From the NCBI GenBank assembly GCA_963667255.1, contig OY762940.1, forward strand, positions 1,523,897 through 1,587,896: 64,000 nucleotides of DNA, given 5' to 3'. Under the pieces are notes generated by a model. It did no database searches. It had not been told where the DNA came from and was given only the letters and a program-made list of their open reading frames with translations. How positions within the stretch are numbered: position 1 is the stretch's first letter; each line of letters opens with the position of its first letter. The stretch is from Candidatus Cloacimonadota bacterium. GTDB lineage: Bacteria > Cloacimonadota > Cloacimonadia > G963667145. Shown here one piece after another: positions 2,451-20,749 of this stretch. Position numbers and translations under genes: made by a program.

Positions 2451-4112
2451 ATGAAATTAACAGGAGCACAGATTGTTATTAAGGCATTGATTGAGCAAGG
2501 AGTTGACACCGTTTTCGGTTACCCTGGCGGCACAGCCCTGCCTATCTACGATGAACTTTACAAAAATAGAGATAAGATAAGCAATATTCTGCCCTCTCAC
2601 GAACAAAATGCCGCTCATGCAGCGGACTCTTATGCCAGAACTACGGGCAAAGTCGGAGTTTGTTTGGCTACCTCAGGTCCTGGTTCCACCAACTTGGTAA
2701 CCGGCATAGCCACAGCCCATATGGACTCCAGCCCTATTATCGCCATTACCAGCAATGTCCCTCTCTCGATGATAGGCAGAGATAGCTTTCAAGAGATTGA
2801 TATAGTTGGGATTACCATTGGGATTACCAAATACAATTACTTCGTGAAAGATGCAAATGACTTGGCAAAAATCGTCAAGGAAGCTTTTGTTATCGCAAGC
2901 TCAGGCAGAAAAGGTGCAGTGTTAATCGACATCCCCAAAGATGTTGCTTTGCAAGAAGTTGAGTATGAAGAACCTGCCTCCTACACTTTGGAAACTCCTC
3001 ATCCCGAAAAAAGCAAAATAGAAGAGGTTGCCAAATACATCAACGAAAGCGAACGACCTTATGTATATTTCGGCGGAGGTGTAAACTCGCCCGAGAACTC
3101 CAAAGCTCTTAACGAATTTGTGAAGAAAATCAATTGTCCTGCGACTTCCAGCCTGATGGGCTTGGGTGCAATCGACCCAAATTATCCGCTCTACACGGGA
3201 TTAATCGGAATGCACGGCACAAAATTTACCAATATCGCCATCCAAAAAAGCGATATGGTTATCGCCATCGGAGCCAGATTTAGCGACAGAGTAACCGGAA
3301 AAGCCAACGCTTTTCTAAAAAAAGCTCATGTCGTCCACATAGACATCGACGAATCGGAAATTAGCAAAAACATAAACTCAACTATCGACCTCGTGGGAGA
3401 TGCCGGCAAAATCTTGAGCGAACTGACCAAATTGATAAAGCCCAAGAATAATCCTGAATGGACGAAGACTATTTTAGAACTCAAAGACAAGCACGATATG
3501 GATTACAGCAAGCCGGAAGGAAAATTGACCCCATACTCCATAATCAGAGAGTTGGACAAATCTACACCCGAGGAGACTATCGTCGCCACAGATGTGGGTC
3601 AACATCAACTTTGGACAGCCCAATATTACAACTTCACCGCTCCGAGAAAGTTCATCACTTCTGGTGGACTGGGAACTATGGGCTTTGGGCTTGGTGCCGC
3701 CATCGGTGCACAATTCGCTTGCCCCAAAACTCCTGTTTTCCTGATAACAGGCGACGGCTCATTCCGCATGAACCTGCACGAACTCTCCACTGTTACAGCC
3801 TACAATCTGCCTATCAAAATTGTTTTGCTGAACAACGGAACTCTGGGAATGGTGCGACAATGGCAAACTCTATTTTACGACAAGCGCTACTCTGCCACCA
3901 CTTTGGACAGAGGACCACATTGGGACAAATTGGCAGAAGCTTACGACTTTACCTATTTCAATTTGGATACCAAAGAGAACTTGGAAGCAACCATGAAAGA
4001 TTTCGTATCTTGCTCGGGACCTGCTATCCTGCACTGCAAAATTGACATAGACGAATGTGTGTTCCCCATAGTGCCTCCAGGAAAAGCCATAGAAAATGCA
4101 ATAACTAAATAA
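2451..4112 (+). CDS. ilvB: acetolactate synthase large subunit
   Basis: FGYPGG, HEQ, TSGPG, TDVGQHQ, SGGLGTMGFG, GDGSF...NN TPP-binding motif, GMVRQWQ. Confidence 0.96.
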   Translation: MKLTGAQIVIKALIEQGVDTVFGYPGGTALPIYDELYKNRDKISNILPSHEQNAAHAADSYARTTGKVGVCLATSGPGSTNLVTGIATAHMDSSPIIAITSNVPLSMIGRDSFQEIDIVGITIGITKYNYFVKDANDLAKIVKEAFVIASSGRKGAVLIDIPKDVALQEVEYEEPASYTLETPHPEKSKIEEVAKYINESERPYVYFGGGVNSPENSKALNEFVKKINCPATSSLMGLGAIDPNYPLYTGLIGMHGTKFTNIAIQKSDMVIAIGARFSDRVTGKANAFLKKAHVVHIDIDESEISKNINSTIDLVGDAGKILSELTKLIKPKNNPEWTKTILELKDKHDMDYSKPEGKLTPYSIIRELDKSTPEETIVATDVGQHQLWTAQYYNFTAPRKFITSGGLGTMGFGLGAAIGAQFACPKTPVFLITGDGSFRMNLHELSTVTAYNLPIKIVLLNNGTLGMVRQWQTLFYDKRYSATTLDRGPHWDKLAEAYDFTYFNLDTKENLEATMKDFVSCSGPAILHCKIDIDECVFPIVPPGKAIENAITK

Positions 4113-4147
4113 ACTATCTGCCTTCCTCAAAACTCGGGGAAGGCTTT
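4110..4147 (+). repeat. terminator-like hairpin, copy 1 of a direct repeat (copy 2 at 4816-4858)
   Basis: TAAACTATCTGCCTTCCTCAAAACTCGGGGAAGGCTTT; GCCTTCC/GGAAGGC stem with only a short T tail. Confidence 0.85.
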
Positions 4148-4164
4148 ATAAATCAAAATAAAAA

Positions 4165-4818
4165 ATGAATAATTTAGAATCTTTTTTGAAAATAGACAAT
4201 TTATATAAATTTATATCTATTTTAGGAATTATACTATTTATAGCTCCATCTATTCTTGGCAATAGACTTGAAAAATTGCAAATAGAAGCCCTAAAACTTC
4301 AATCAGAAAGTAAAATTGTTAAGGAAAGCGCCAAAAGTCTTAATAACAAAGTGAAAAAATTTGAGAAAGACTTCATCAAAATTGAAAATAAAATAAAAAT
4401 ATCACATATTAATTTATATAAATTATGTGAAGAAAAATATAAGTTACTTAGTAAACAAAAAGAAAACATTTCATTATTAGAAAAAAAACTTATAGATAAA
4501 AAACTAAAAGATTTGAATAAAAGAATTAATTCAATAATACAAAAAAATAGAAAAAACTTTGATATTATGAATTATTATAATTCCCAAAATAATGAAAATT
4601 ATAAATCTGCCATTGAAAAACAAAAACTTGCAGAAAATCTTCTTATTAAAGCTAAAACCACAGAAATTGAACTTAACAATTATATGAAAGACTTATACAA
4701 AGAAGAAATATCAAAAATAATAGGTATTGCTTTAATAATATTAGGCGTTATTCTTTGGTATTTTAAAATACAAATTTATATTGACAAAGAAATTAAAAGT
4801 CAAAGTAAAACTCAATAA
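4165..4818 (+). CDS. AT-rich hypothetical membrane protein (TM - coiled coil - TM)
   Basis: 217-aa ORF with hydrophobic segments at both ends and a K/E/N-rich middle; markedly more AT-rich than its neighbours. Confidence 0.75.
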   Translation: MNNLESFLKIDNLYKFISILGIILFIAPSILGNRLEKLQIEALKLQSESKIVKESAKSLNNKVKKFEKDFIKIENKIKISHINLYKLCEEKYKLLSKQKENISLLEKKLIDKKLKDLNKRINSIIQKNRKNFDIMNYYNSQNNENYKSAIEKQKLAENLLIKAKTTEIELNNYMKDLYKEEISKIIGIALIILGVILWYFKIQIYIDKEIKSQSKTQ

Positions 4819-4858
4819 AATATCCGCCTTCCTCAAAAATTTGGGGAAGGCTTTTTTT
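4816..4858 (+). terminator. intrinsic terminator, copy 2 of the direct repeat
   Basis: GCCTTCCTCAAAAATTTGGGGAAGGC followed by T7; lies between convergent genes. Confidence 0.85.
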
Positions 4859-4860
4859 AT

Positions 4861-10181: not shown

Positions 10182-10601
10182 ATGAAAATAAGTGCAAGAA
10201 ATTTGTTGAAAGGCAAAATCGCCTCAATCGAAAAAGGTGCCGTTAACTCCGAAGTTGTTTTGGAATTAGACGGCGGAACCCCCATCACAACTATCATCAC
10301 CAATAAATCCGTGGACAATTTGGCGATTTCCGTTGGCTCTCCAGCTATGGCTATCATCAAGGCCACTCATGTCATCATCGGCACAGGCGATGCCAAACTA
10401 AGTGCTAGAAATATTTTAGCTGGAAAGGTTGCCGGCATAGAAGTTGGAGCTGTTAATACGGAAGTGAGTGTTGAAATTGGCGGAGGAAATGTGATTACCG
10501 CTATGATTACCAAAAAATCTGCCGAAAATTTGGGATTGGCAAAAGGAAGCCCGGCCAAAGCTATTGTGAAAGCTTCCTCAATTATTTTGGCAGTTGACTA
10601 A
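10182..10601 (+). CDS. di-TOBE/Mop molybdate-binding protein (ModG-like)
   Basis: Two SARN...GAVN.EV...IT..S...L...G repeats; AGGAG RBS. Confidence 0.93.
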   Translation: MKISARNLLKGKIASIEKGAVNSEVVLELDGGTPITTIITNKSVDNLAISVGSPAMAIIKATHVIIGTGDAKLSARNILAGKVAGIEVGAVNTEVSVEIGGGNVITAMITKKSAENLGLAKGSPAKAIVKASSIILAVD

Positions 10602-10620
10602 TTTACAAGAAAAGTTACTC

Positions 10621-10650
10621 AAAAGACAGGCTGAAAAAGTCTGTCTTTTG
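10621..10650 (+). terminator. intrinsic terminator
   Basis: AAAAGACAGGCT-GAAAA-AGTCTGTCTTTT hairpin. Confidence 0.75.
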
Positions 10651-10664
10651 TTTATGTATTCAAA

Positions 10665-11531
10665 ATGAACTCTAAAATAAAAGCTCTCGTCAATACCCTT
10701 TTATGTGTTATATTGTGGGCACTTCTTCCTGTTGTTTCCAAATTGGGACAAACAAATCTCGATAACCATCAATTCCTTTTTTGGTCGAGCTTGGTTTCGT
10801 TCTTGATTTTTTTCGGAATAATATTGCCTCAGAAAAAAATAGAAACAATCGCAAAATTTTCCGTAAAAGACTGGGCTAATTCCATATTTTTAGGTTTCCT
10901 CGGTTCTTATTTGTATTACATATTACTCTATTTCGGATATGCAAACGCTCAAGGAATTGAAGTTTTGATAATTCAATTTTGTTGGCCTATTTTCGTGATT
11001 TTCCTTTCAATTTTCATTTTAAGAGAAAAAATAAATTCAAGAAAAGTGATGTCGGTTATTATAGGATTTTTTGGTGTCTTTTTGGTTTTGAGCAAAGGCA
11101 ACTTTGGAAATGTCCATCTTGAAAATTTATTCGTTGATGGCATAGTTTTATTTGCTGCATTTGTCTTCGGACTTTTTTCCGTTTTGAGCAAAAGAGTTAA
11201 AACCGATTCTCTGTCGCTTGTGACAATCTATTTTTTGTCGGCAACGATATTTTCTTTTTTTCCAATGATTCTGTTTTCAGACTTTAAGTTGCCAACCAGA
11301 GAGACAATTATGTCCATTCTACTCAACGGTGCTTTAGTAAACGGAATTTCGTATATTTTTTGGATAGAAGCATTGAAAAACGGGAAAGCATCTTTTATTG
11401 CCCCTTTTTTCTTTCTGACTCCTGTAATTTCCACAATACTACTAATCTTGCTTTTCAAAGAACCTTTCCATTTAATTTACCTGTTTGGAATGAGTTCAGT
11501 GATTTTAGGGGGTCTATTAAACAAAGAATGA
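10665..11531 (+). CDS. EamA/DMT family transporter
   Basis: About 10 TM segments with two EamA-like halves. Confidence 0.88.
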   Translation: MNSKIKALVNTLLCVILWALLPVVSKLGQTNLDNHQFLFWSSLVSFLIFFGIILPQKKIETIAKFSVKDWANSIFLGFLGSYLYYILLYFGYANAQGIEVLIIQFCWPIFVIFLSIFILREKINSRKVMSVIIGFFGVFLVLSKGNFGNVHLENLFVDGIVLFAAFVFGLFSVLSKRVKTDSLSLVTIYFLSATIFSFFPMILFSDFKLPTRETIMSILLNGALVNGISYIFWIEALKNGKASFIAPFFFLTPVISTILLILLFKEPFHLIYLFGMSSVILGGLLNKE

Positions 11532-11576
11532 ACTTCATATTGTAAAATAAACCAAATAAATAAAAAGGACAATAAA

Positions 11577-11596
11577 ATGCAATAACAACATTGCAT
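11577..11596. promoter_or_regulatory. perfect palindrome ATGCAAT-N6-ATTGCAT, putative operator
   Basis: Intergenic, 24 nt upstream of ATG 11621. Confidence 0.45.
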
Positions 11597-11620
11597 ACTG
11601 GTAAAAACAACATTAATACT

Positions 11621-12154
11621 ATGAAAAATCCCCAAACCTACATTCTCACCGGAAATTTCAACTCTGGCAAAACGAGTTTCCTAATAAAATTAATCGAAGT
11701 TTTAAAAGAGAAGAAAATAAAAATCAATGGAATTTATTGCCCAAAAGTTTTTGAGAACAAAAATTTTCTCGGCTTTGATGTTGTTGATATTCAGACAAAT
11801 AAGAGCGAGCCCTTCCTCCGCACTTACACCAACGGAACAACAGACAAAATCGGAAATTTCTATATTTACCAGCAAGGACTAAAATTTGGACTTGAATGCC
11901 TAAAGATTGCCAACGAAACAAAAAATCAAATTGTCGTTATCGATGAAATCGGCAGACTTGAGAATTGGGGAAAAGGCTGGGCAAGTGAATTGCAAAATAT
12001 GCTAAACCCCCAAAACAAACATCTTATTTTGGTAATCAACGAAGAGTATCTTGAAGAAGTAATTGACAAATGGAAATTTAAAAATACAAAAATTATCAAA
12101 ATTTCAAAAGAAGATTTTGTGGCAACAGCGAATCGAATAATTAGGGAGATTTAA
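11621..12154 (+). CDS. P-loop NTPase (NTPase_1/THEP1-like)
   Basis: ILTGNFNSGKT, GFDVVDI, VIDEIGRLE. Confidence 0.82.
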   Translation: MKNPQTYILTGNFNSGKTSFLIKLIEVLKEKKIKINGIYCPKVFENKNFLGFDVVDIQTNKSEPFLRTYTNGTTDKIGNFYIYQQGLKFGLECLKIANETKNQIVVIDEIGRLENWGKGWASELQNMLNPQNKHLILVINEEYLEEVIDKWKFKNTKIIKISKEDFVATANRIIREI

Positions 12155-12169
12155 AAAAGGGAGATTCAC

Positions 12170-13276
12170 ATGCAAGAACAATTTTATATGCCGGTAAAAA
12201 CAATCATCGGTAGAGACTGCCTAAAAAATAGCAGTGAATTTTTGCAAAAATACGGCAAAAAAGTGCTCATCATTTGCGGTTATAAATCCGCTGATGAAAA
12301 CGGTGCCATCAACGATGCCACTCATGCTCTAGGAAGTGCCAATATCGCTTACGAAATATTTCGCGGAATAGACCCAAACCCAAGCATTGAGCAAGTCCAC
12401 CAAGTCTCAGAAATTGCCATCAAAGGTAATTGCGATTTTATCTTGGCGATTGGCGGTGGCTCTGTAATCGATGCCGCTAAAGCAGTGGCAATCCTCAGCA
12501 AAAACAAGCTGATAGACGACGAACTTTTCACTACAAAAAAATTCACCTCCGTGCTCCCCCTCATAGCTGTGCCTACCACTGCCGGAACAGGTAGCGAAGT
12601 TACTCAGTATTCCATCATCACCAACGATAAAAAGAAAACAAAAACCTCTATCGCTTGTGAACAAATTTTCCCCGAAATAGCTTTTTTGGACGGGAAATAC
12701 ATGAAAAATCTACCTTTTGAGACTACCGTCAACACAACTATCGATGCTCTGAGTCATGCTGTAGAAGGATACTTAGCTGTTAGATCTACGGCTTTGGGCA
12801 GAACCCTCGCTATAGAGAGCATTAAATTAATTGCACCCATCATCGTAAAAATGAAAGACAATTTACCTCTGACATTGAAAGACAGAGATACACTCCTCTA
12901 CGCTTCCATGTTGGCAGGTATCGTTATTTCTCAAAGTGGCACCACAGCAGTTCATGCCGTCGGCTACTCTCTGACCTACTTCAAACATGTTGACCACGGC
13001 AGAGCGAACGGACTTCTGATGCCCTACTATATGGAATTTTTGCACAAAGAAAGAAAAAACGATATTTCCAATATTCTATCAGCCTTAAATTTGCCCTCGT
13101 TAAACGAATTTAGAAATCTGTGTTTTTCATTGCTCACCCCCGAACCGCTAACAACAGAGGAAATAGACAAATTTTCTGAGATTGTCATCCAAGCGGGCAA
13201 CATCCAAAACACATCACCACAACCGACAATAAAAATCATAAAAGAAATGTTGATAGACGCCTCAAAAAAGGAGTAA
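12170..13276 (+). CDS. iron-containing alcohol dehydrogenase family protein
   Basis: GGGSVIDAAK, PTTAGTGSE, DALSHAVE, H...HG metal ligands. Confidence 0.92.
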   Translation: MQEQFYMPVKTIIGRDCLKNSSEFLQKYGKKVLIICGYKSADENGAINDATHALGSANIAYEIFRGIDPNPSIEQVHQVSEIAIKGNCDFILAIGGGSVIDAAKAVAILSKNKLIDDELFTTKKFTSVLPLIAVPTTAGTGSEVTQYSIITNDKKKTKTSIACEQIFPEIAFLDGKYMKNLPFETTVNTTIDALSHAVEGYLAVRSTALGRTLAIESIKLIAPIIVKMKDNLPLTLKDRDTLLYASMLAGIVISQSGTTAVHAVGYSLTYFKHVDHGRANGLLMPYYMEFLHKERKNDISNILSALNLPSLNEFRNLCFSLLTPEPLTTEEIDKFSEIVIQAGNIQNTSPQPTIKIIKEMLIDASKKE

Positions 13277-13279
13277 ATT

Positions 13280-14434
13280 ATGAAAAAAATATCTGTCTTC
13301 CTAAAAGGAATAATTTTAATTGCATTTGTAATAATCGCTTCATTTTTTTCTGTAAAAATTTGGAATGATAAACCTGAATCCATTGAATACTCTCATGAGA
13401 TTTATTTCGAAAATGAGATGACAGTTTCAGAATTTGGGGAGAAAAATAACCTCGATAGACCTCTGCTAAAAAAACTTTTTGAGCTAAATACAGAAAGCGA
13501 CTTGCAAAGGAGACTTGGCGACTTCAATTATTCTAAGGAAGCTGTTTCCGAAATAATAAAAAAAGCGACCGTTCTCCAATCTGAAGAAGAATCAAAGAAC
13601 TGGAAGAAAATCTTTTCCAAATTTCTGCTCTGGGTAATTTTCCTTTTTGTAATGTTCCTTTTCATTAAAAAAAAGAGATTAAATAATAGCCTAAGAATAG
13701 TTTTTTACGGTTTCGCTGTCCTACTTTTTGGAATAATCCTCGGTTCTGACCCAGGTCCTATGGGCACCATAAAAGATGCCATTATACTCTTTGGAACTCA
13801 TAAAGTAATTTTCCCCCCACGAATGATTGCCTTAGCATTTTTTCTGATTTTGGTATTTGTCGCTAACAAATTCATCTGCTCTTGGGGTTGCCAAGCAGGT
13901 ACATTACAAGATATTTTGTTCAGAATAAATCGAGACAAAGAAGACAAACCAATCATAAAACAATATAAAATCCCCTTTTTCGTTAGTAATTTAATTCGTG
14001 CTGCCTTTTTCTTAATTTTGACTGCTGTGGCACTTATCTGGGCATTCGACATTGTGGAGTTTATCGACCCGCTCAAACTTTTTAAACCGGAAAAATTAGG
14101 TGCTATCGGATGGATATTTCTTGGTGCTATGCTCTTTTGCAGCCTCTTTGTTTGCCGACCATGGTGTCATTTATTCTGCCCTTTCGGACTAATCGGGTGG
14201 TTAGTAGAAAAAATTTCAATCTTCAAAATCGTTGTCGATTACGATAAATGTATAGGATGTGGGGAATGTGCAACTGCTTGCCCCTCAACAGCCATGAGTT
14301 CAATTCTCAAAAGAGACAAAGTAATAGCTGATTGTTTCTCATGTGGTTCTTGCATAGAGGCATGCCCTGTAAATGCCATCGAATTTAAAAGAGGCAAACA
14401 ACTTAAACCGCCTAAAGACAAATTTAAAAAATAG
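13280..14434 (+). CDS. membrane 4Fe-4S binding protein (NapH/MauN-like)
   Basis: CSWGCQAG and WCHLFCPFG motifs; two CxxCxxCxxxCP ferredoxin motifs at the C-terminus. Confidence 0.85.
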   Translation: MKKISVFLKGIILIAFVIIASFFSVKIWNDKPESIEYSHEIYFENEMTVSEFGEKNNLDRPLLKKLFELNTESDLQRRLGDFNYSKEAVSEIIKKATVLQSEEESKNWKKIFSKFLLWVIFLFVMFLFIKKKRLNNSLRIVFYGFAVLLFGIILGSDPGPMGTIKDAIILFGTHKVIFPPRMIALAFFLILVFVANKFICSWGCQAGTLQDILFRINRDKEDKPIIKQYKIPFFVSNLIRAAFFLILTAVALIWAFDIVEFIDPLKLFKPEKLGAIGWIFLGAMLFCSLFVCRPWCHLFCPFGLIGWLVEKISIFKIVVDYDKCIGCGECATACPSTAMSSILKRDKVIADCFSCGSCIEACPVNAIEFKRGKQLKPPKDKFKK

Positions 14435-14569
14435 GAAAGCTTTCATTTTTTGAGAAGAAAATTTTGGATTGACAAAAATTGAAAGAAAATTCAAGAAACC
14501 TAGAGCATGCAGGTAGACAAAAGTATTGATTTACTCTTGGTTCTATATCATTCTCAAGGTGGAAATCTA

Positions 14570-15637
14570 ATGTATATTCAAACTACACATATTTGGTCTA
14601 GGCTTTTTAGCCCTATTTTTTTTATTTTTTATTTTTTCATATGGATAGGGACATTTCTTATTTTATTGCCTATATTCCCCAATAATTTTTTGATAATTTT
14701 TGCATTTATTGGTTCTTTTGGTTTTTCATTTATCGTATTATATTTTATTGGTGGTTTTTTCCATTATCTACAAACCTTTCTATATGTTAACATCAACCTT
14801 GGGACAAAGATTACATTTAAAGAAGCTAAAAGTTTAACATTTCTTTTTCTACCTAATGATGAAGGAACTTGGTACCCAATGAAGGGAATTAAAGAATTAC
14901 CAAAAGAATATAGGAGAAAAGTTTTATTCGAAAGTACAAAAAGAATTTGTGATGAAATGAATTATATTTTTGATTTGGAAGAATATTTCTCAACTATTGA
15001 AGAAAAAGAAGATTATTTTCCCATATTACCAGGACTTACTAATTTGATCTCTATGTTTAGTAAAATTGCTAAAAGTGATGGTATTATTACCAAAGAAGAA
15101 ATAGAAGTAATAAACAATTTTTTAACAAATACTTTAAAACTGAATAATTATGACAAAAAAATTGTTGTGGAAATTTTTAACAAATCTAAAAATAGTGATA
15201 TCCCTTTTGAATTCCATGCAAGAAAATTTATGGAATTTCATAATTCTGAACCTATTTTATTAAAAAATGTTATTCAACTACTAATTGATATTGGGTATAG
15301 CGATGGTATATTAAGCTCTGAGGAAAAAATTCTTTTGAAGGAAGCTTTATTAATTTTTAAACTGAAAGAAAGTGATTTTTTCTTTAAAGAGAACTCTTCT
15401 AATTTTAATAACACAACTAATTTAAAAAAAGACTATTTATATTATGCAAAAATTTTAGGTATTACTAATGAAATTACTAAATCAAATGTAAAAACTGCTT
15501 ATAGAAAATTAGTTTTAAAATATCATCCTGATAAAGTATCACATCTAGGCTTAGAAGCCATAAAAATTGCTGAATGTGAAATGAAAAAAATTAATGAAGC
15601 CTATGAATTTTTAAAAAAATATTTTACTGATTTATGA
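14570..15637 (+). CDS. AT-rich TerB + DnaJ domain membrane protein (DjlA-like, extended N-terminus)
   Basis: KIAKSDGIITKEE and SDGILSSEE TerB motifs; YRKLVLKYHPDK...INEAYE J-domain. Confidence 0.85.
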   Translation: MYIQTTHIWSRLFSPIFFIFYFFIWIGTFLILLPIFPNNFLIIFAFIGSFGFSFIVLYFIGGFFHYLQTFLYVNINLGTKITFKEAKSLTFLFLPNDEGTWYPMKGIKELPKEYRRKVLFESTKRICDEMNYIFDLEEYFSTIEEKEDYFPILPGLTNLISMFSKIAKSDGIITKEEIEVINNFLTNTLKLNNYDKKIVVEIFNKSKNSDIPFEFHARKFMEFHNSEPILLKNVIQLLIDIGYSDGILSSEEKILLKEALLIFKLKESDFFFKENSSNFNNTTNLKKDYLYYAKILGITNEITKSNVKTAYRKLVLKYHPDKVSHLGLEAIKIAECEMKKINEAYEFLKKYFTDL

Positions 15638-15646
15638 TACTCTCCT

Positions 15647-15751
15647 CACTCCACATCTTTATCATTAGCGAATAAACCATAGACAAAAAGTTTCATTGAA
15701 ATTAGTTGGTAGTTTGTGTAAGGAGTTTTAAGAAAATGCAAAAAGATATTC
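15647..15751 (+). repeat. direct repeat copy A of the rpmE upstream region and first 5 codons
   Basis: About 105 nt, roughly 9 differences by hand alignment from 16483-16588. Confidence 0.95.
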
Positions 15752-16164
15752 GTTGGCAACAAAGATTTATAAATTTTAAAAAAGCTTTCAAACAATTATC
15801 CAAATTTATTGAGCATAAAGAACTGAATGAAATGGAGAAACAAGGATTAATAAAAGCTTTTGAATACACCTACGAATTAAGTTGGAAAACTCTTCAAGAT
15901 TTGTTGAGAGAAAAAGGCTATAATCAAATTGCAGGACCAAAACCTGTAATAGAGCAAAGTTTTCAAGATGGCTATATCTCAAATGGTAAAGGCTGGATGA
16001 GAATGCACCAAAGAAGGAATTTGACAAGCCATGTTTATGATGAAGAGATCGCTAGCGAAATAATCGAGGGTATAAGAAACGAGTCCTTTTTTCTTTTACA
16101 GGATTTGGTAAAGAGATTAGAAAAAGAAGAATCCACCTATCAAAAGTCTTTGTTTGATGAATAA
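15736..16164 (+). CDS. HEPN-domain protein (HI0074-type nucleotidyltransferase substrate-binding / toxin)
   Basis: DIRWQQRF, GLIKAFEYTYELSWK, RNLTSH (RX4H). Confidence 0.9.
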   Translation: MQKDIRWQQRFINFKKAFKQLSKFIEHKELNEMEKQGLIKAFEYTYELSWKTLQDLLREKGYNQIAGPKPVIEQSFQDGYISNGKGWMRMHQRRNLTSHVYDEEIASEIIEGIRNESFFLLQDLVKRLEKEESTYQKSLFDE

Positions 16165-16462
16165 AAATGTAAATAGCGGTTTGAGTTGTGAAGACATAGA
16201 GAACATTGTTAAAATTATAAAACATTGTTCTAAAGTAAGCGAAATAATTCTCTTTGGCTCAAGAGCAAAAGGCAATTTCACTAATGGCTCTGACATTGAT
16301 ATCGCCCTAAAAGGTAACAATATTTTGCTCGATGATGTTCTTGATATCTCTATTGAGTTAGAAGAATTAAATCTACCCTATCGTTTTGATTTAGTTATTT
16401 TTAACCGCATAAAAGAAAAAGCCTTAATTGAACATATTTCAAGAGTGGGGATTATTTTATAA
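16157..16462 (+). CDS. minimal nucleotidyltransferase (MNT antitoxin)
   Basis: LFGSRAKGNFTNGSDID = GSX10DXD; overlaps the HEPN gene stop. Confidence 0.9.
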   Translation: MNKNVNSGLSCEDIENIVKIIKHCSKVSEIILFGSRAKGNFTNGSDIDIALKGNNILLDDVLDISIELEELNLPYRFDLVIFNRIKEKALIEHISRVGIIL

Positions 16463-16482
16463 AAAACAAACTCATTCCAACC

Positions 16483-16588
16483 CACTTCACATCTTTATCA
16501 TTGACAAATAAACCATAAACCAAAGAGTTGCATTGAAATTAGTTAGTAGTTTGTGTAAGGAGTTTTAAGAAAATGCAAAAAGATATTC
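16483..16588 (+). repeat. direct repeat copy B (native rpmE promoter/RBS; TTGACA at 16501-16506)
   Basis: Matches 15647-15751. Confidence 0.95.
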
Positions 16589-16782
16589 ATCCAAAATACG
16601 AAGAAGTCGAAGTTAAGTGTGCATGTGGCAACAGCTTCAAGACTAAAAGTTGTAAATGCGAAGACAGTGTGTTGCATACTGAGATTTGCTCGAATTGTCA
16701 TCCATTCTACACTGGCAAACAAAAGATTGTTGACTCTGCCGGTAGAGTGGAAAGATTTAAGCAAAGATACAACAAAAAATAA
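16573..16782 (+). CDS. rpmE: 50S ribosomal protein L31 (Zn-ribbon, Cys-containing type)
   Basis: [32 protein letters not shown]. Confidence 0.98.
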
Positions 16783-16800
16783 TTATTATTTATTTTTACA

Positions 16801-16830
16801 AGACCTTAGGATAATAAGGTCTATTTTTTT
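16801..16830 (+). terminator. hairpin with T tract after rpmE
   Basis: AGACCTTA-GGATAA-TAAGGTCT-ATTTTTTT. Confidence 0.6.
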
Positions 16831-17775
16831 ATGAAACAAAAATTGGACAAAGCCGGTGGACAAGCGGTAATCAAGGGTGTGATGATGAAGTCAGGTAACA
16901 AAATCGCCACGGCAACTATCCGTCTTGACAAGACCATTGAGCTCCACCAAAGAGCTTTCAAAAGTCTGCAGAAAAAGTTCAAAGTGTTCGGCTTGCCTGT
17001 CATCAGAGGCTTTGTAAATCTGCTCCAAATGATGACGATAGGCTATTCCACTTTGCAATATTCAGCCGACCGTGCTATGCTGGACGAAGGCACTGCGATT
17101 AACAAATCCAAACTTAGAGAAAAAATCGAATCGGGCTTAACTTTCCTGATTTCGATACTTATCGGCTTGGGACTGTTTGTGGCTCTCCCCTATTTTGTTT
17201 CCGAACAACTACCAAATAGTGAAAACAATTTTTCTTTCAACATCATCGCTGGAATTATCCGCGTAATCCTTTTCCTTGTTTACTTGATAGCGATAAGTTG
17301 GCTGAAAGATATCAAAGAGATTTTCCAGTTTCACGGAGCGGAACACAAGACGATTAACTCCTATGAAAAAACCTCGGAACTAAATCCCGAAGACATTAGC
17401 AAAGAGACAAGAATCAATCCCCGTTGCGGGACAAGTTTCATCTTTTTGGTGCTAATAATCTCCATATTTTTGTTTTCCATTCTGGATAGTTTGGTCAGTC
17501 TGAAATTCGGCAGACCTCTTTTGCCAATCAGAATTGCTTATCACATTCTCTGCATTCCCATCGTTGCCGGAATTTCGTATGAAGTATTGAAGTTTAGCGA
17601 TAAACATATCGAGAATAAACTTGTTGCTTTTTTGATTAGCCCAGGGCTTTTGTTGCAACGGATTACCACCAAAGAGCCAACAATTGAACAAATCGAAGTG
17701 GCTGTTGTCGCACTGAAAGCAGCGTTGGATTTGCCAATAGATGCCACAATAAAACGAGTAGAAACAGATGTTTAG
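16831..17775 (+). CDS. DUF1385 membrane protein
   Basis: GGQAVIKGVMM, FHGAEHK, PRCGTSF, PGLLLQRITTKEP; usual rpmE-prfA context. Confidence 0.92.
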   Translation: MKQKLDKAGGQAVIKGVMMKSGNKIATATIRLDKTIELHQRAFKSLQKKFKVFGLPVIRGFVNLLQMMTIGYSTLQYSADRAMLDEGTAINKSKLREKIESGLTFLISILIGLGLFVALPYFVSEQLPNSENNFSFNIIAGIIRVILFLVYLIAISWLKDIKEIFQFHGAEHKTINSYEKTSELNPEDISKETRINPRCGTSFIFLVLIISIFLFSILDSLVSLKFGRPLLPIRIAYHILCIPIVAGISYEVLKFSDKHIENKLVAFLISPGLLLQRITTKEPTIEQIEVAVVALKAALDLPIDATIKRVETDV

Positions 17776-20125: not shown

Positions 20126-20749
20126 TTGTCCAAAAAACTAACTTTACTCTTTGCCGTATTTATTTCCCTATACACCGCTTCCAACCTATTGGGAATCAAA
20201 ATCATCACATTTATGGGTGTAAATGCGTCCGTAAATATTTTTATTGCTCCTCTTCTTTTCCTCATAACAGACGCTATTGAAGAGGTTTACGGGAAAAATG
20301 TTGTTTTCAATTTGATAATTTCCGCACTCATCAGCTTAGTTCTAATTTTTTGCTTTTTACTTCTGGCGATTTGGATGAAACCGGCAACAAGATTTGAATT
20401 CAACACAGAATACATCACAATTTTCCATTTCTCACTAAGAATGATTTTCGCCAGTATTGCAGCATTTTTCATCTCACAATTCAACGATATGCTGGTTTTT
20501 GCGTATCTGAAAAAGAGAACAAATGGAAAATTTTTGTGGCTTCGCAACAATGTTTCCACAATTATCTCTCAAACTTTGGACACCTTCATTTTTATGTATC
20601 TCTTTATGTATAAAATGACACCAAAATTTGACGCCTTTTTTGTATTCCAATTAGCTTTACCCTACTTAGCTTTAAAAATATTTTTTGCCCTTTGCGACAC
20701 ACCTTTTGTTTATCTTTTGGTAAAATGGCTTAAAAAAACGGAGAAATAA
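20126..20749 (+). CDS. yhhQ: queuosine precursor transporter (YhhQ/DUF165)
   Basis: FLITDAIEEVYG, RMIFASIAAFFISQFND, WLRNNVSTIISQTLDT, DTPF. Confidence 0.9.
   Translation: MSKKLTLLFAVFISLYTASNLLGIKIITFMGVNASVNIFIAPLLFLITDAIEEVYGKNVVFNLIISALISLVLIFCFLLLAIWMKPATRFEFNTEYITIFHFSLRMIFASIAAFFISQFNDMLVFAYLKKRTNGKFLWLRNNVSTIISQTLDTFIFMYLFMYKMTPKFDAFFVFQLALPYLALKIFFALCDTPFVYLLVKWLKKTEK

Follow-up and report, generated by a model that had tools for sequence, protein, structure and literature searches.

Insertion with long target duplication of restriction-modification (R-M) genes was reportedly described by Nobusato et al. in 2000. In the account of Furuta, Abe, and Kobayashi (2010; PMC2853133), the repeats flanking such R-M insertions often span translation starts or stops, and one case is a gene fusion. 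Direct repeats, mostly of <30 bp, commonly (10-18%) flank variable segments (PMC2884548). For the tandem arrays of T6SS effector-immunity genes, homology-facilitated illegitimate recombination has been proposed (Kirchberger et al. 2017; PMC5361080). Among toxin-antitoxin (TA) systems, the class I HepT/MntA pairs (type VII TA) are defined by the motifs RX4HXY and GSX10DXD (Yao et al. 2020; PMC7641770).

Here, we analyzed a HEPN-MNT pair lying between two copies of the leader of rpmE, the gene for ribosomal protein L31, in a 64,000-nucleotide stretch (the window) of a Candidatus Cloacimonadota genome. The locus works like the R-M long target duplication class without being a member of it. As in that class (PMC2853133), a small addictive cargo without a mobility gene is flanked by a direct repeat of >30 bp that is single copy in relatives, the repeat lies over a translation start, and the target gene stays whole. 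The insert is <20 kb, the repeat is not dispersed, and no mobile element was found linked to it among the open reading frames scanned. Unlike in that class, the cargo consists of HEPN and MNT only, not of R and M genes, and no DNA-cutting enzyme travels along; sequence comparison places the donor in another phylum; the microhomology is in frame and lies at codons 3 to 5 of a gene for a ribosomal protein; and decay has affected the duplicated promoter but not the ribosome-binding site (RBS). A single leader is present in all five congeners, but behind other upstream genes, and no exact djlA-leader-rpmE allele was found. The T6SS arrays (PMC5361080) would resemble the locus in that a module is added through a homologous anchor at one end and an illegitimate joint at the other, without loss of the old cargo, at a site where alleles also exchange by ordinary recombination. 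Here, however, the anchor would lie downstream (rpmE), with the joint inside the anchor gene's own 5′ end, and a duplication with a translational fusion is seen in place of orphan 3′ genes. In the openly accessible literature searched, we found no report of such an arrangement and no TA or ribosomal-leader case of long target duplication, nor was one found under promoter capture with microhomology or TA systems of Cloacimonadota. The geometry and the TA family are already known.

The rpmE leader is present twice around the HEPN-MNT pair

Copy 1 of the repeat (105 nt; 15647 to 15751) comprises a decayed rpmE promoter region, an intact RBS, and rpmE codons 1 to 5 plus one base, and copy 2 (106 nt; 16483 to 16588) comprises the intact rpmE leader and codons 1 to 5. 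All window features given here are on the forward strand. The copies are spaced 836 nt apart and are identical in 97 of 106 columns (91.5%; blastn E value, 1e-36). Their eight substitutions and one indel agree with the earlier note, which had counted about nine differences over ~105 nt by hand. The differences fall at copy 2 positions 16487, 16503, 16504, 16506, 16518, 16520 (the indel), 16525, 16530, and 16545, the alignment having nine equal optima at 16518 to 16520. All nine lie within the first 63 columns, the promoter part (P value, 0.007), and the final 43 nt, which hold the RBS and the five codons, are identical between copies (P value of zero differences at the rate of the variable part, 0.001).

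The same note had named a dispersed repeat or an assembly artifact as findings that would overturn its reading. Only two copies are present in the 1,587,896-nt single-contig genome, the next match being 37 nt long (E value, 0.001). In public contigs from X1 to X3, which are three runs of two samples, the djlA-like gene and the 5′ part of copy 1 (14446/14300 to 15738) lie on one record, and HEPN-MNT and the 5′ part of copy 2 (15722 to 16517/16575) lie on a separate record. Since the divergent 5′ halves were assembled separately, each with its own neighbors, an artifact is unlikely. These short-read contigs do not phase across the identical 43-nt tail, which X1 and X3 hold as a separate collapsed record; X1 and X2 possibly derive from the source sample, and the junction of copy 1 with HEPN has 30 letters on the repeat side against a threshold of 31. 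Overall, we consider an artifact or a dispersed repeat to be very improbable.

The cargo has the features of a class I HepT/MntA pair

The HEPN gene (15736 to 16164; 142 amino acids [aa]) encodes a predicted toxin of the HI0074 family (PF08780, E value of 8e-37; TIGR01987), with RX4HXY at codons 94 to 101 (16015 to 16038). The adjoining gene (16157 to 16462; 101 aa) encodes a predicted MNT antitoxin matching PF18765 and PF01909 above cut-off, with GSX10DXD at residues 34 to 48. Both motifs are intact (R94-N-L-T-S-H99-V-Y101 and G34-S35-X10-D46-I-D48), and this adjacency of a PF08780 toxin and an MNT gene is that of the class I HepT/MntA pairs (PMC7641770), from which the locus differs by its borrowed leader. 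The NCBIfam MntA model scored 42.1 on MNT, under its cut-off of 60, and PADLOC gave weak MNT matches only. The start of MNT and the stop of HEPN share 8 nt, an overlap also present in L023 and L027, the closest two Bacteroidota loci, and the toxin-first order is that of the Bacteroidales relatives. The best structural matches were PDB 8XDJ and 8XEH, both of the Legionella HEPN-MNT system; the Mg-site residue is Q44 in that system (PMC11586414) but Lys here, as in 119 of 119 homologues listed among the best 120 of 1,543.

Three private HEPN substitutions, S93R, T100V, and Y117S, were absent from these 119 listed homologues (best 120 of 1,543) at columns that are at least 95% conserved, and two of the three lie in or beside the RX4HXY loop. 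As many private changes were seen in one of the 119. Attenuation of the toxin after capture is possible on this evidence; the private loop substitutions may affect its predicted RNase toxicity, which in the class is neutralized by AMPylation of the motif tyrosine. Pseudogenization of the toxin was rejected overall. The dN and dS values to Labilibaculum were 0.087 and 1.55, respectively; four deviations at columns at least 90% conserved were matched by 16 of the 119 listed homologues (best 120 of 1,543); and the HEPN terminal branch (0.16, versus a median of 0.17) gave no sign of a raised overall rate. Both reading frames are open, a state that survived in 1.7% of simulations with 0.14 neutral substitutions per site, the argument being weaker at 0.07 per site (P value, 0.12).

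Downstream of the pair, a 20-nt C-rich linker (16463 to 16482) follows the MNT stop codon, and rpmE (16573 to 16782), encoding a zinc-type L31, is followed by a DUF1385 gene and prfA. A terminator-like hairpin 3′ of rpmE (16801 to 16832) was the only one found between 15400 and 17000, with 0.7 expected by chance. Upstream, the slot contains a second cargo, a djlA-like gene (14507 to 15637) with TerB and DnaJ domains and a GC content of 24%.

The pair is of Bacteroidota type

The best non-self HEPN matches were up to 85% identical, and all organism-named ones among the best 120 of 1,543 were Bacteroidota. The same HEPN-MNT pair was found in seven Bacteroidales loci, with HEPN identities of 80 to 84%, and the Labilibaculum DNA was 81% identical over 15742 to 16452, that is, from codon 3 onward. 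Within the host's own class, a HEPN homologue was present in 31 of 231 other genomes, the best being 49% identical. A 50-row tree placed the window HEPN in a 17-row clade with 16 Bacteroidota rows (support, 100/100); these rows had been picked as top matches, and two long branches meet elsewhere in the tree. Constraining the protein to group with 28 same-class homologues was rejected (AU test; P value, 0.0003). Together, the Bacteroidota clade and this rejection show that the pair is foreign, in line with the capture proposed in the earlier note, and, by sequence, place its origin in another phylum than that of its host.

HEPN is fused in frame to the start of rpmE

The HEPN protein starts MQKDI-RW and L31 starts MQKDI-HP, in line with the shared MQKDI start noted earlier. 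HI0074-type proteins had been said to begin often with DIRW, and this motif was indeed found near the start in 110 of 119 other listed homologues, with an MxKDIRW start in 17 (best 120 of 1,543). Among the 26 homologues starting MxxDIRW in that list (best 120 of 1,543), none had Q at position 2. Codon 5 is ATA in six of the seven donor-like loci and ATT in both window copies. Against the commonest donor start, the start of rpmE agrees at 13 of 16 nt, and only 9 of 3,108 open reading frame starts in the genome score as high; against the other two donor starts, it agrees at 12 and 11 nt. These comparisons indicate an rpmE origin for codon 2 and the 89 nt upstream, and probably also for codon 5, which places the joint within 15742 to 15751, where AAAGATATTC (codons 3 to 5 plus one base) is common to rpmE and the incoming HEPN gene. 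Microhomology at the joint is a feature of homology-facilitated illegitimate recombination.

The relatives of this HEPN start MNKDIRW without a Shine-Dalgarno (SD) motif. An SD 4-mer was present in none of seven donor-like Bacteroidales leaders versus 366 of 869 long host open reading frames (background, 8.8%), and the anti-SD sequence is present at the end of both host 16S genes. Bacteroidia have been described as lacking SD sequences (PMC13000457). With donor leaders lacking an SD motif and a host using it, the joint probably replaced an SD-less leader with the AAGGAG motif of rpmE (15720 to 15725), which by sequence lies 10 nt before the HEPN ATG. At the sequence level, HEPN is thus fused in frame to a duplicated rpmE RBS and first five codons.

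The copied promoter has decayed, and the ribosome-binding site has not

The rpmE −35 hexamer, TTGACA in copy 2 (16501 to 16506), reads TTAGCG in copy 1 (15665 to 15670), and the earlier note was correct in attributing this to three of the differences. TTGACA is shared by copy 2 and congener G001, so that TTAGCG is the derived form. Copy 2 equals G001 at all eight differences that G001 covers; a relative's contig in run X4 has G at 16519, like G001, and one difference may therefore be derived in copy 2. The proposal that the −35 was lost and the strong RBS kept holds in that copy 2 preserves the ancestral TTGACA and copy 1 has an altered hexamer, with the RBS part identical; the loss itself is compatible with plain drift. 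Three of nine changes in the hexamer gave a P value of 0.03 within the variable 63 nt, post hoc. Synonymous divergence (dS) between the host and G001 was 0.85 to 1.32, and the 14% divergence of the promoter part therefore needs no positive selection. For the RBS tract, the identity of the two copies suggests purifying selection or conversion. By eye, TTAGCG-AATAAA in copy 1 resembles the leader of three related Bacteroidales loci, and the flanking bases follow rpmE.

The other elements of copy 2 are a degenerate −10-like AAGAGT (16523 to 16528) and an SD motif (16557 to 16562). TTGACA is retained in six of six rpmE leaders, followed after 16 nt by nAnnnT in five and after 15 nt in G005. No TATAAT-like −10 follows TTGACA; only the degenerate nAnnnT fits, and a consensus scanner made no promoter call. 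Genome-wide, nAnnnT lay at 16 nt in 30 of 116 TTGACA sites before an SD-led ATG (18, 9, and 9 sites at 15, 17, and 18 nt, respectively), and TTGACA promoters in this genome appear to be paired with a degenerate nAnnnT at 16 nt, not with TATAAT at 17 nt.

Two candidate promoters for the pair were rejected: a replacement in the djlA tail (15610 to 15638; 9 of 12 positions) was within chance (8 found, 6.7 expected), and a TTGACA inside HEPN (16021) had no fitting −10. Terminator prediction gave nothing in the djlA-HEPN and MNT-rpmE intervals, which makes read-through the likely source of transcript for the pair. An L31-type leader RNA was not apparent, with no Rfam match near cut-off and folding z-scores of 0.3 to 2.0. 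C-rich, G-poor tracts follow both cargo stop codons (15630 to 15660 and 16461 to 16495) and also precede the rpmE −35 in G002 to G004; the copy 2 tract is in the top 0.5% of TTGACA sites, and our guess is that such tracts could be Rho-loading sites.

The slot upstream of rpmE is variable

Comparison with relatives lacking the pair, as the earlier note had proposed, revealed a single rpmE leader in all five congeners, with neither the repeat nor HEPN-MNT at the site and with a different neighbor upstream in each: a short remnant after a TOBE-like gene in G001, a FAD oxidoreductase in G002, a NOV_C protein in G003, an N6-methylase with an S subunit in G004, and an ACT protein in G005. The distance from the TOBE-like gene to rpmE is ~5.9 kb in the host and ~0.26 kb in G001. 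The djlA-like gene had no DNA match in the five congeners.

Variation was also seen between strains. A 5,269-nt contig of run X1 (depth, 3.1; contig depths are not copy numbers) follows the window through a TTGACA(A) before the djlA-like gene (14469 to 14475), the left edge of the slot, then carries 5,204 other letters in place of 14476 to 16482, and rejoins at 16483. The relative's contig in X4 likewise matches only from 16483 onward and has a different flank before that point. These two contigs indicate that slot alleles coexist and that on the right they end where copy 2 of the repeat starts. The content of the slot thus varies between species and between strains. Flank comparisons with the congeners gave no clear boundary signal at 16483, which lies in a C-rich tract, and the shared edge may reflect fast local change. 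Shuffle tests found no match of 16463 to 16482 to donor DNA after MNT or to the copy 1 flank. Neither djlA joined to a single leader nor this HEPN-MNT with its own leader before rpmE was present in any genome examined, and pattern scans of metagenomes returned no conspecific locus (0 loci; 1 unrelated locus).

Several side observations were made in this region. The stretch from 10602 to 16482 has the look of an island accreting directly upstream of rpmE, with EamA, NTPase, Fe-ADH, ferredoxin-domain membrane protein, djlA-like, and HEPN-MNT genes. In G001, the short gene-like remnant (L017, 8290 to 8400) abuts the rpmE −35, so that the slot edge differs from that of the host. The same G001 locus holds an 89-nt decayed duplicate of an arsR-like leader and first codons (4386 to 4474 and 4772 to 4860), 386 nt upstream of the real leader and after an Mrr-type gene. 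In G002 (L020, near 3401 to 4670), two tandem paralogues are present of a 207-aa membrane protein that is single in the window (20126 to 20749).

Two alleles of the slot may have been stacked

The earlier note proposed that the pair was captured without a transposase by duplication of a ribosomal-protein leader. The pair is foreign, and no transposase or integrase was found among the open reading frames scanned between 9.4 and 18.8 kb (a TOBE-like frame at 10182 being left out), which agrees with the first part of this proposal. The nearest tyrosine recombinase lies ~19 kb away, the ends carry no inverted repeats that would point to a site-specific element, no structure above shuffles was seen in four folded segments, and no Rfam match came near cut-off. 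The second part, a one-step duplication from this chromosome, did not hold to the same degree, the hypervariable slot and the X1 allele fitting the stacking of two slot alleles at least as well.

We lean toward the latter, a fusion of the pair to a duplicated rpmE start by homology-anchored illegitimate recombination. DNA of a sister strain carrying HEPN-MNT-leader-rpmE would have undergone ordinary recombination within rpmE at its right end, and its left end would have been joined illegitimately at the shared AAAGATAT(T)C inside the start of the resident rpmE. The resident djlA-leader-rpmE and the incoming HEPN-MNT-leader-rpmE would thereby be stacked in tandem, copy 1 being the leader of the resident and copy 2 that of the donor, and the joint would have given the pair a strong host RBS in place of a leader of the donor type, without an SD motif. 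Decay of the promoter half of copy 1 would have come later, with the RBS half under purifying selection or homogenized, and HEPN-MNT would probably be transcribed by read-through that starts on the djlA side. The host has ComEC and DprA genes, as do 10 of 14 control genomes, and these are not proof of competence. Neither parent allele was found, however, and an extra earlier capture is needed, which makes this account less parsimonious than one insertion.

A single insertion with long target duplication is the main competing account, which we regard as possible but distinctly less probable. HEPN-MNT DNA would have been joined illegitimately twice, once at rpmE codons 3 to 5 and once ~90 nt upstream, the latter on a sister chromosome or through a template switch, with the leader copied in the process. 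It requires one acquisition only and has the geometry described by Furuta et al. 2010, in which repeats often span a translation start or stop (PMC2853133); the clean empty site at rmlD in G001 (see below) fits it equally well. The two copies also share states specific to the host genome relative to G001, which indicates that they separated after the split of these two genomes. However, its second joint would be free to fall anywhere upstream of the promoter, yet it matches an edge that the djlA allele has in common with the X1 minor allele and the X4 relative. Copy 2 is also free of any djlA tail, and in five donor-like loci the DNA after MNT has no microhomology to the leader.

Whether it arose by stacking, which we favor, or by one insertion, the pair should be hard to lose. 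Promoter decay would have a ratchet effect: crossing over within the 43-nt tract would delete the pair, removing the antitoxin and leaving rpmE behind the broken −35 (TTAGCG), and restoring the promoter on deletion would need a crossover in a 15-nt perfect tract, the only one upstream of the −35 changes. The reciprocal product of such a crossover would put the pair under an intact rpmE promoter.

Duplicated 5′ gene ends recur in the genome

Self-comparison of the host genome revealed 16 two-copy local direct repeats of 35 to 300 nt. Local duplication of this kind lends some plausibility to a third history, in which a tandem duplication of rpmE came first and HEPN-MNT later replaced the upstream copy from codon 6 on, giving the same final sequence. 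It would take two rare events and the precise loss of the remaining copy, and no second rpmE or remnant is present in the host or five congeners; we therefore rate it as improbable.

Two further repeats duplicate the 5′ end of a gene around a cargo. At rmlD, the RBS region and ~16 codons are duplicated (C1:722823/724869; 722823 to 724939, L077), flanking glf and a DUF4422 gene, and G001 has a single-copy empty site (L079). At degT, the 5′ end is duplicated (C1:4614/3906; 3906 to 4689, L078) around an ORF6N gene, with a fragment of 23 codons, and no empty site was found in the congeners. At both loci, the TGA of the fragment overlaps the ATG of the next gene (ATGA), which has no SD 4-mer of its own. 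Coupled cargo was seen at three of six duplicated 5′ ends examined, rpmE included, and the other three had none. The nearest named relatives of the glf cargo are Arcobacteraceae, and those of ORF6N are of mixed taxa; these affinities rejected the idea of SD-less donors for all such cargoes, and the SD-less-donor argument holds for HEPN-MNT only. Other duplicated 5′ gene fragments were noted in a polysaccharide locus, mixed with insertion sequence (IS) pieces (C1, 41207/44091, 22062/30827, and 42679/42992), and a 1,111-nt IS has many near-identical copies across the genome.

Repeats of at least 60 nt bracketed 7 of 42 other HEPN-MNT loci, compared with ~1% of random segments of the host genome. 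This recurrence would be expected of an active cassette that moves without an integrase, in which the repeats would recombine with each other to release a circle or to amplify the pair; the circle would put HEPN-MNT under an intact rpmE promoter, a crossover in the identical 43-nt tract setting TTGACA before HEPN, and would reenter the rpmE leaders of relatives. Amplification of repeat-flanked R-M genes is also discussed by Furuta et al. (PMC2853133). Against frequent exchange, the two copies are 8.5% diverged. Three of the seven bracketed loci represent one lineage, several of the repeats look dispersed or tandem, and the genome used for the baseline is not that of the loci compared. No viral contig had the rpmE-start pattern (0 in a viral scan), and altogether an active cassette seems quite unlikely. 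In the lineage concerned, a Bacteroidales one (L024, L025, and L026), the final 96 nt of the upstream gene are repeated on the other side of the same HEPN-MNT pair; in L026, the repeat extends to 273 nt and also takes in the leader and a 5′ piece of HEPN broken by a stop codon.

At the locus described here, long target duplication is extended from R-M genes to a TA pair without a DNA-cutting enzyme, which bears on whether the mechanism needs a nuclease in the cargo. The alternative X1 allele in a public run makes the stacking of two alleles testable. As a tentative and rather speculative generalization, duplicated host 5′ ends might be, in this lineage, a recurring, selected route to translation starts for foreign genes (by in-frame fusion at rpmE and by ATGA coupling at rmlD and degT), with HEPN-MNT made SD-led in one joint, locked before rpmE-prfA by promoter decay, and still switchable onto a full ribosomal-protein promoter by repeat recombination. 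The integrating joint would itself supply the RBS, so that a gene without mobility functions would cross a phylum-level expression barrier, and such a gene-capture scar would hand incoming genes a ready-made translation start.
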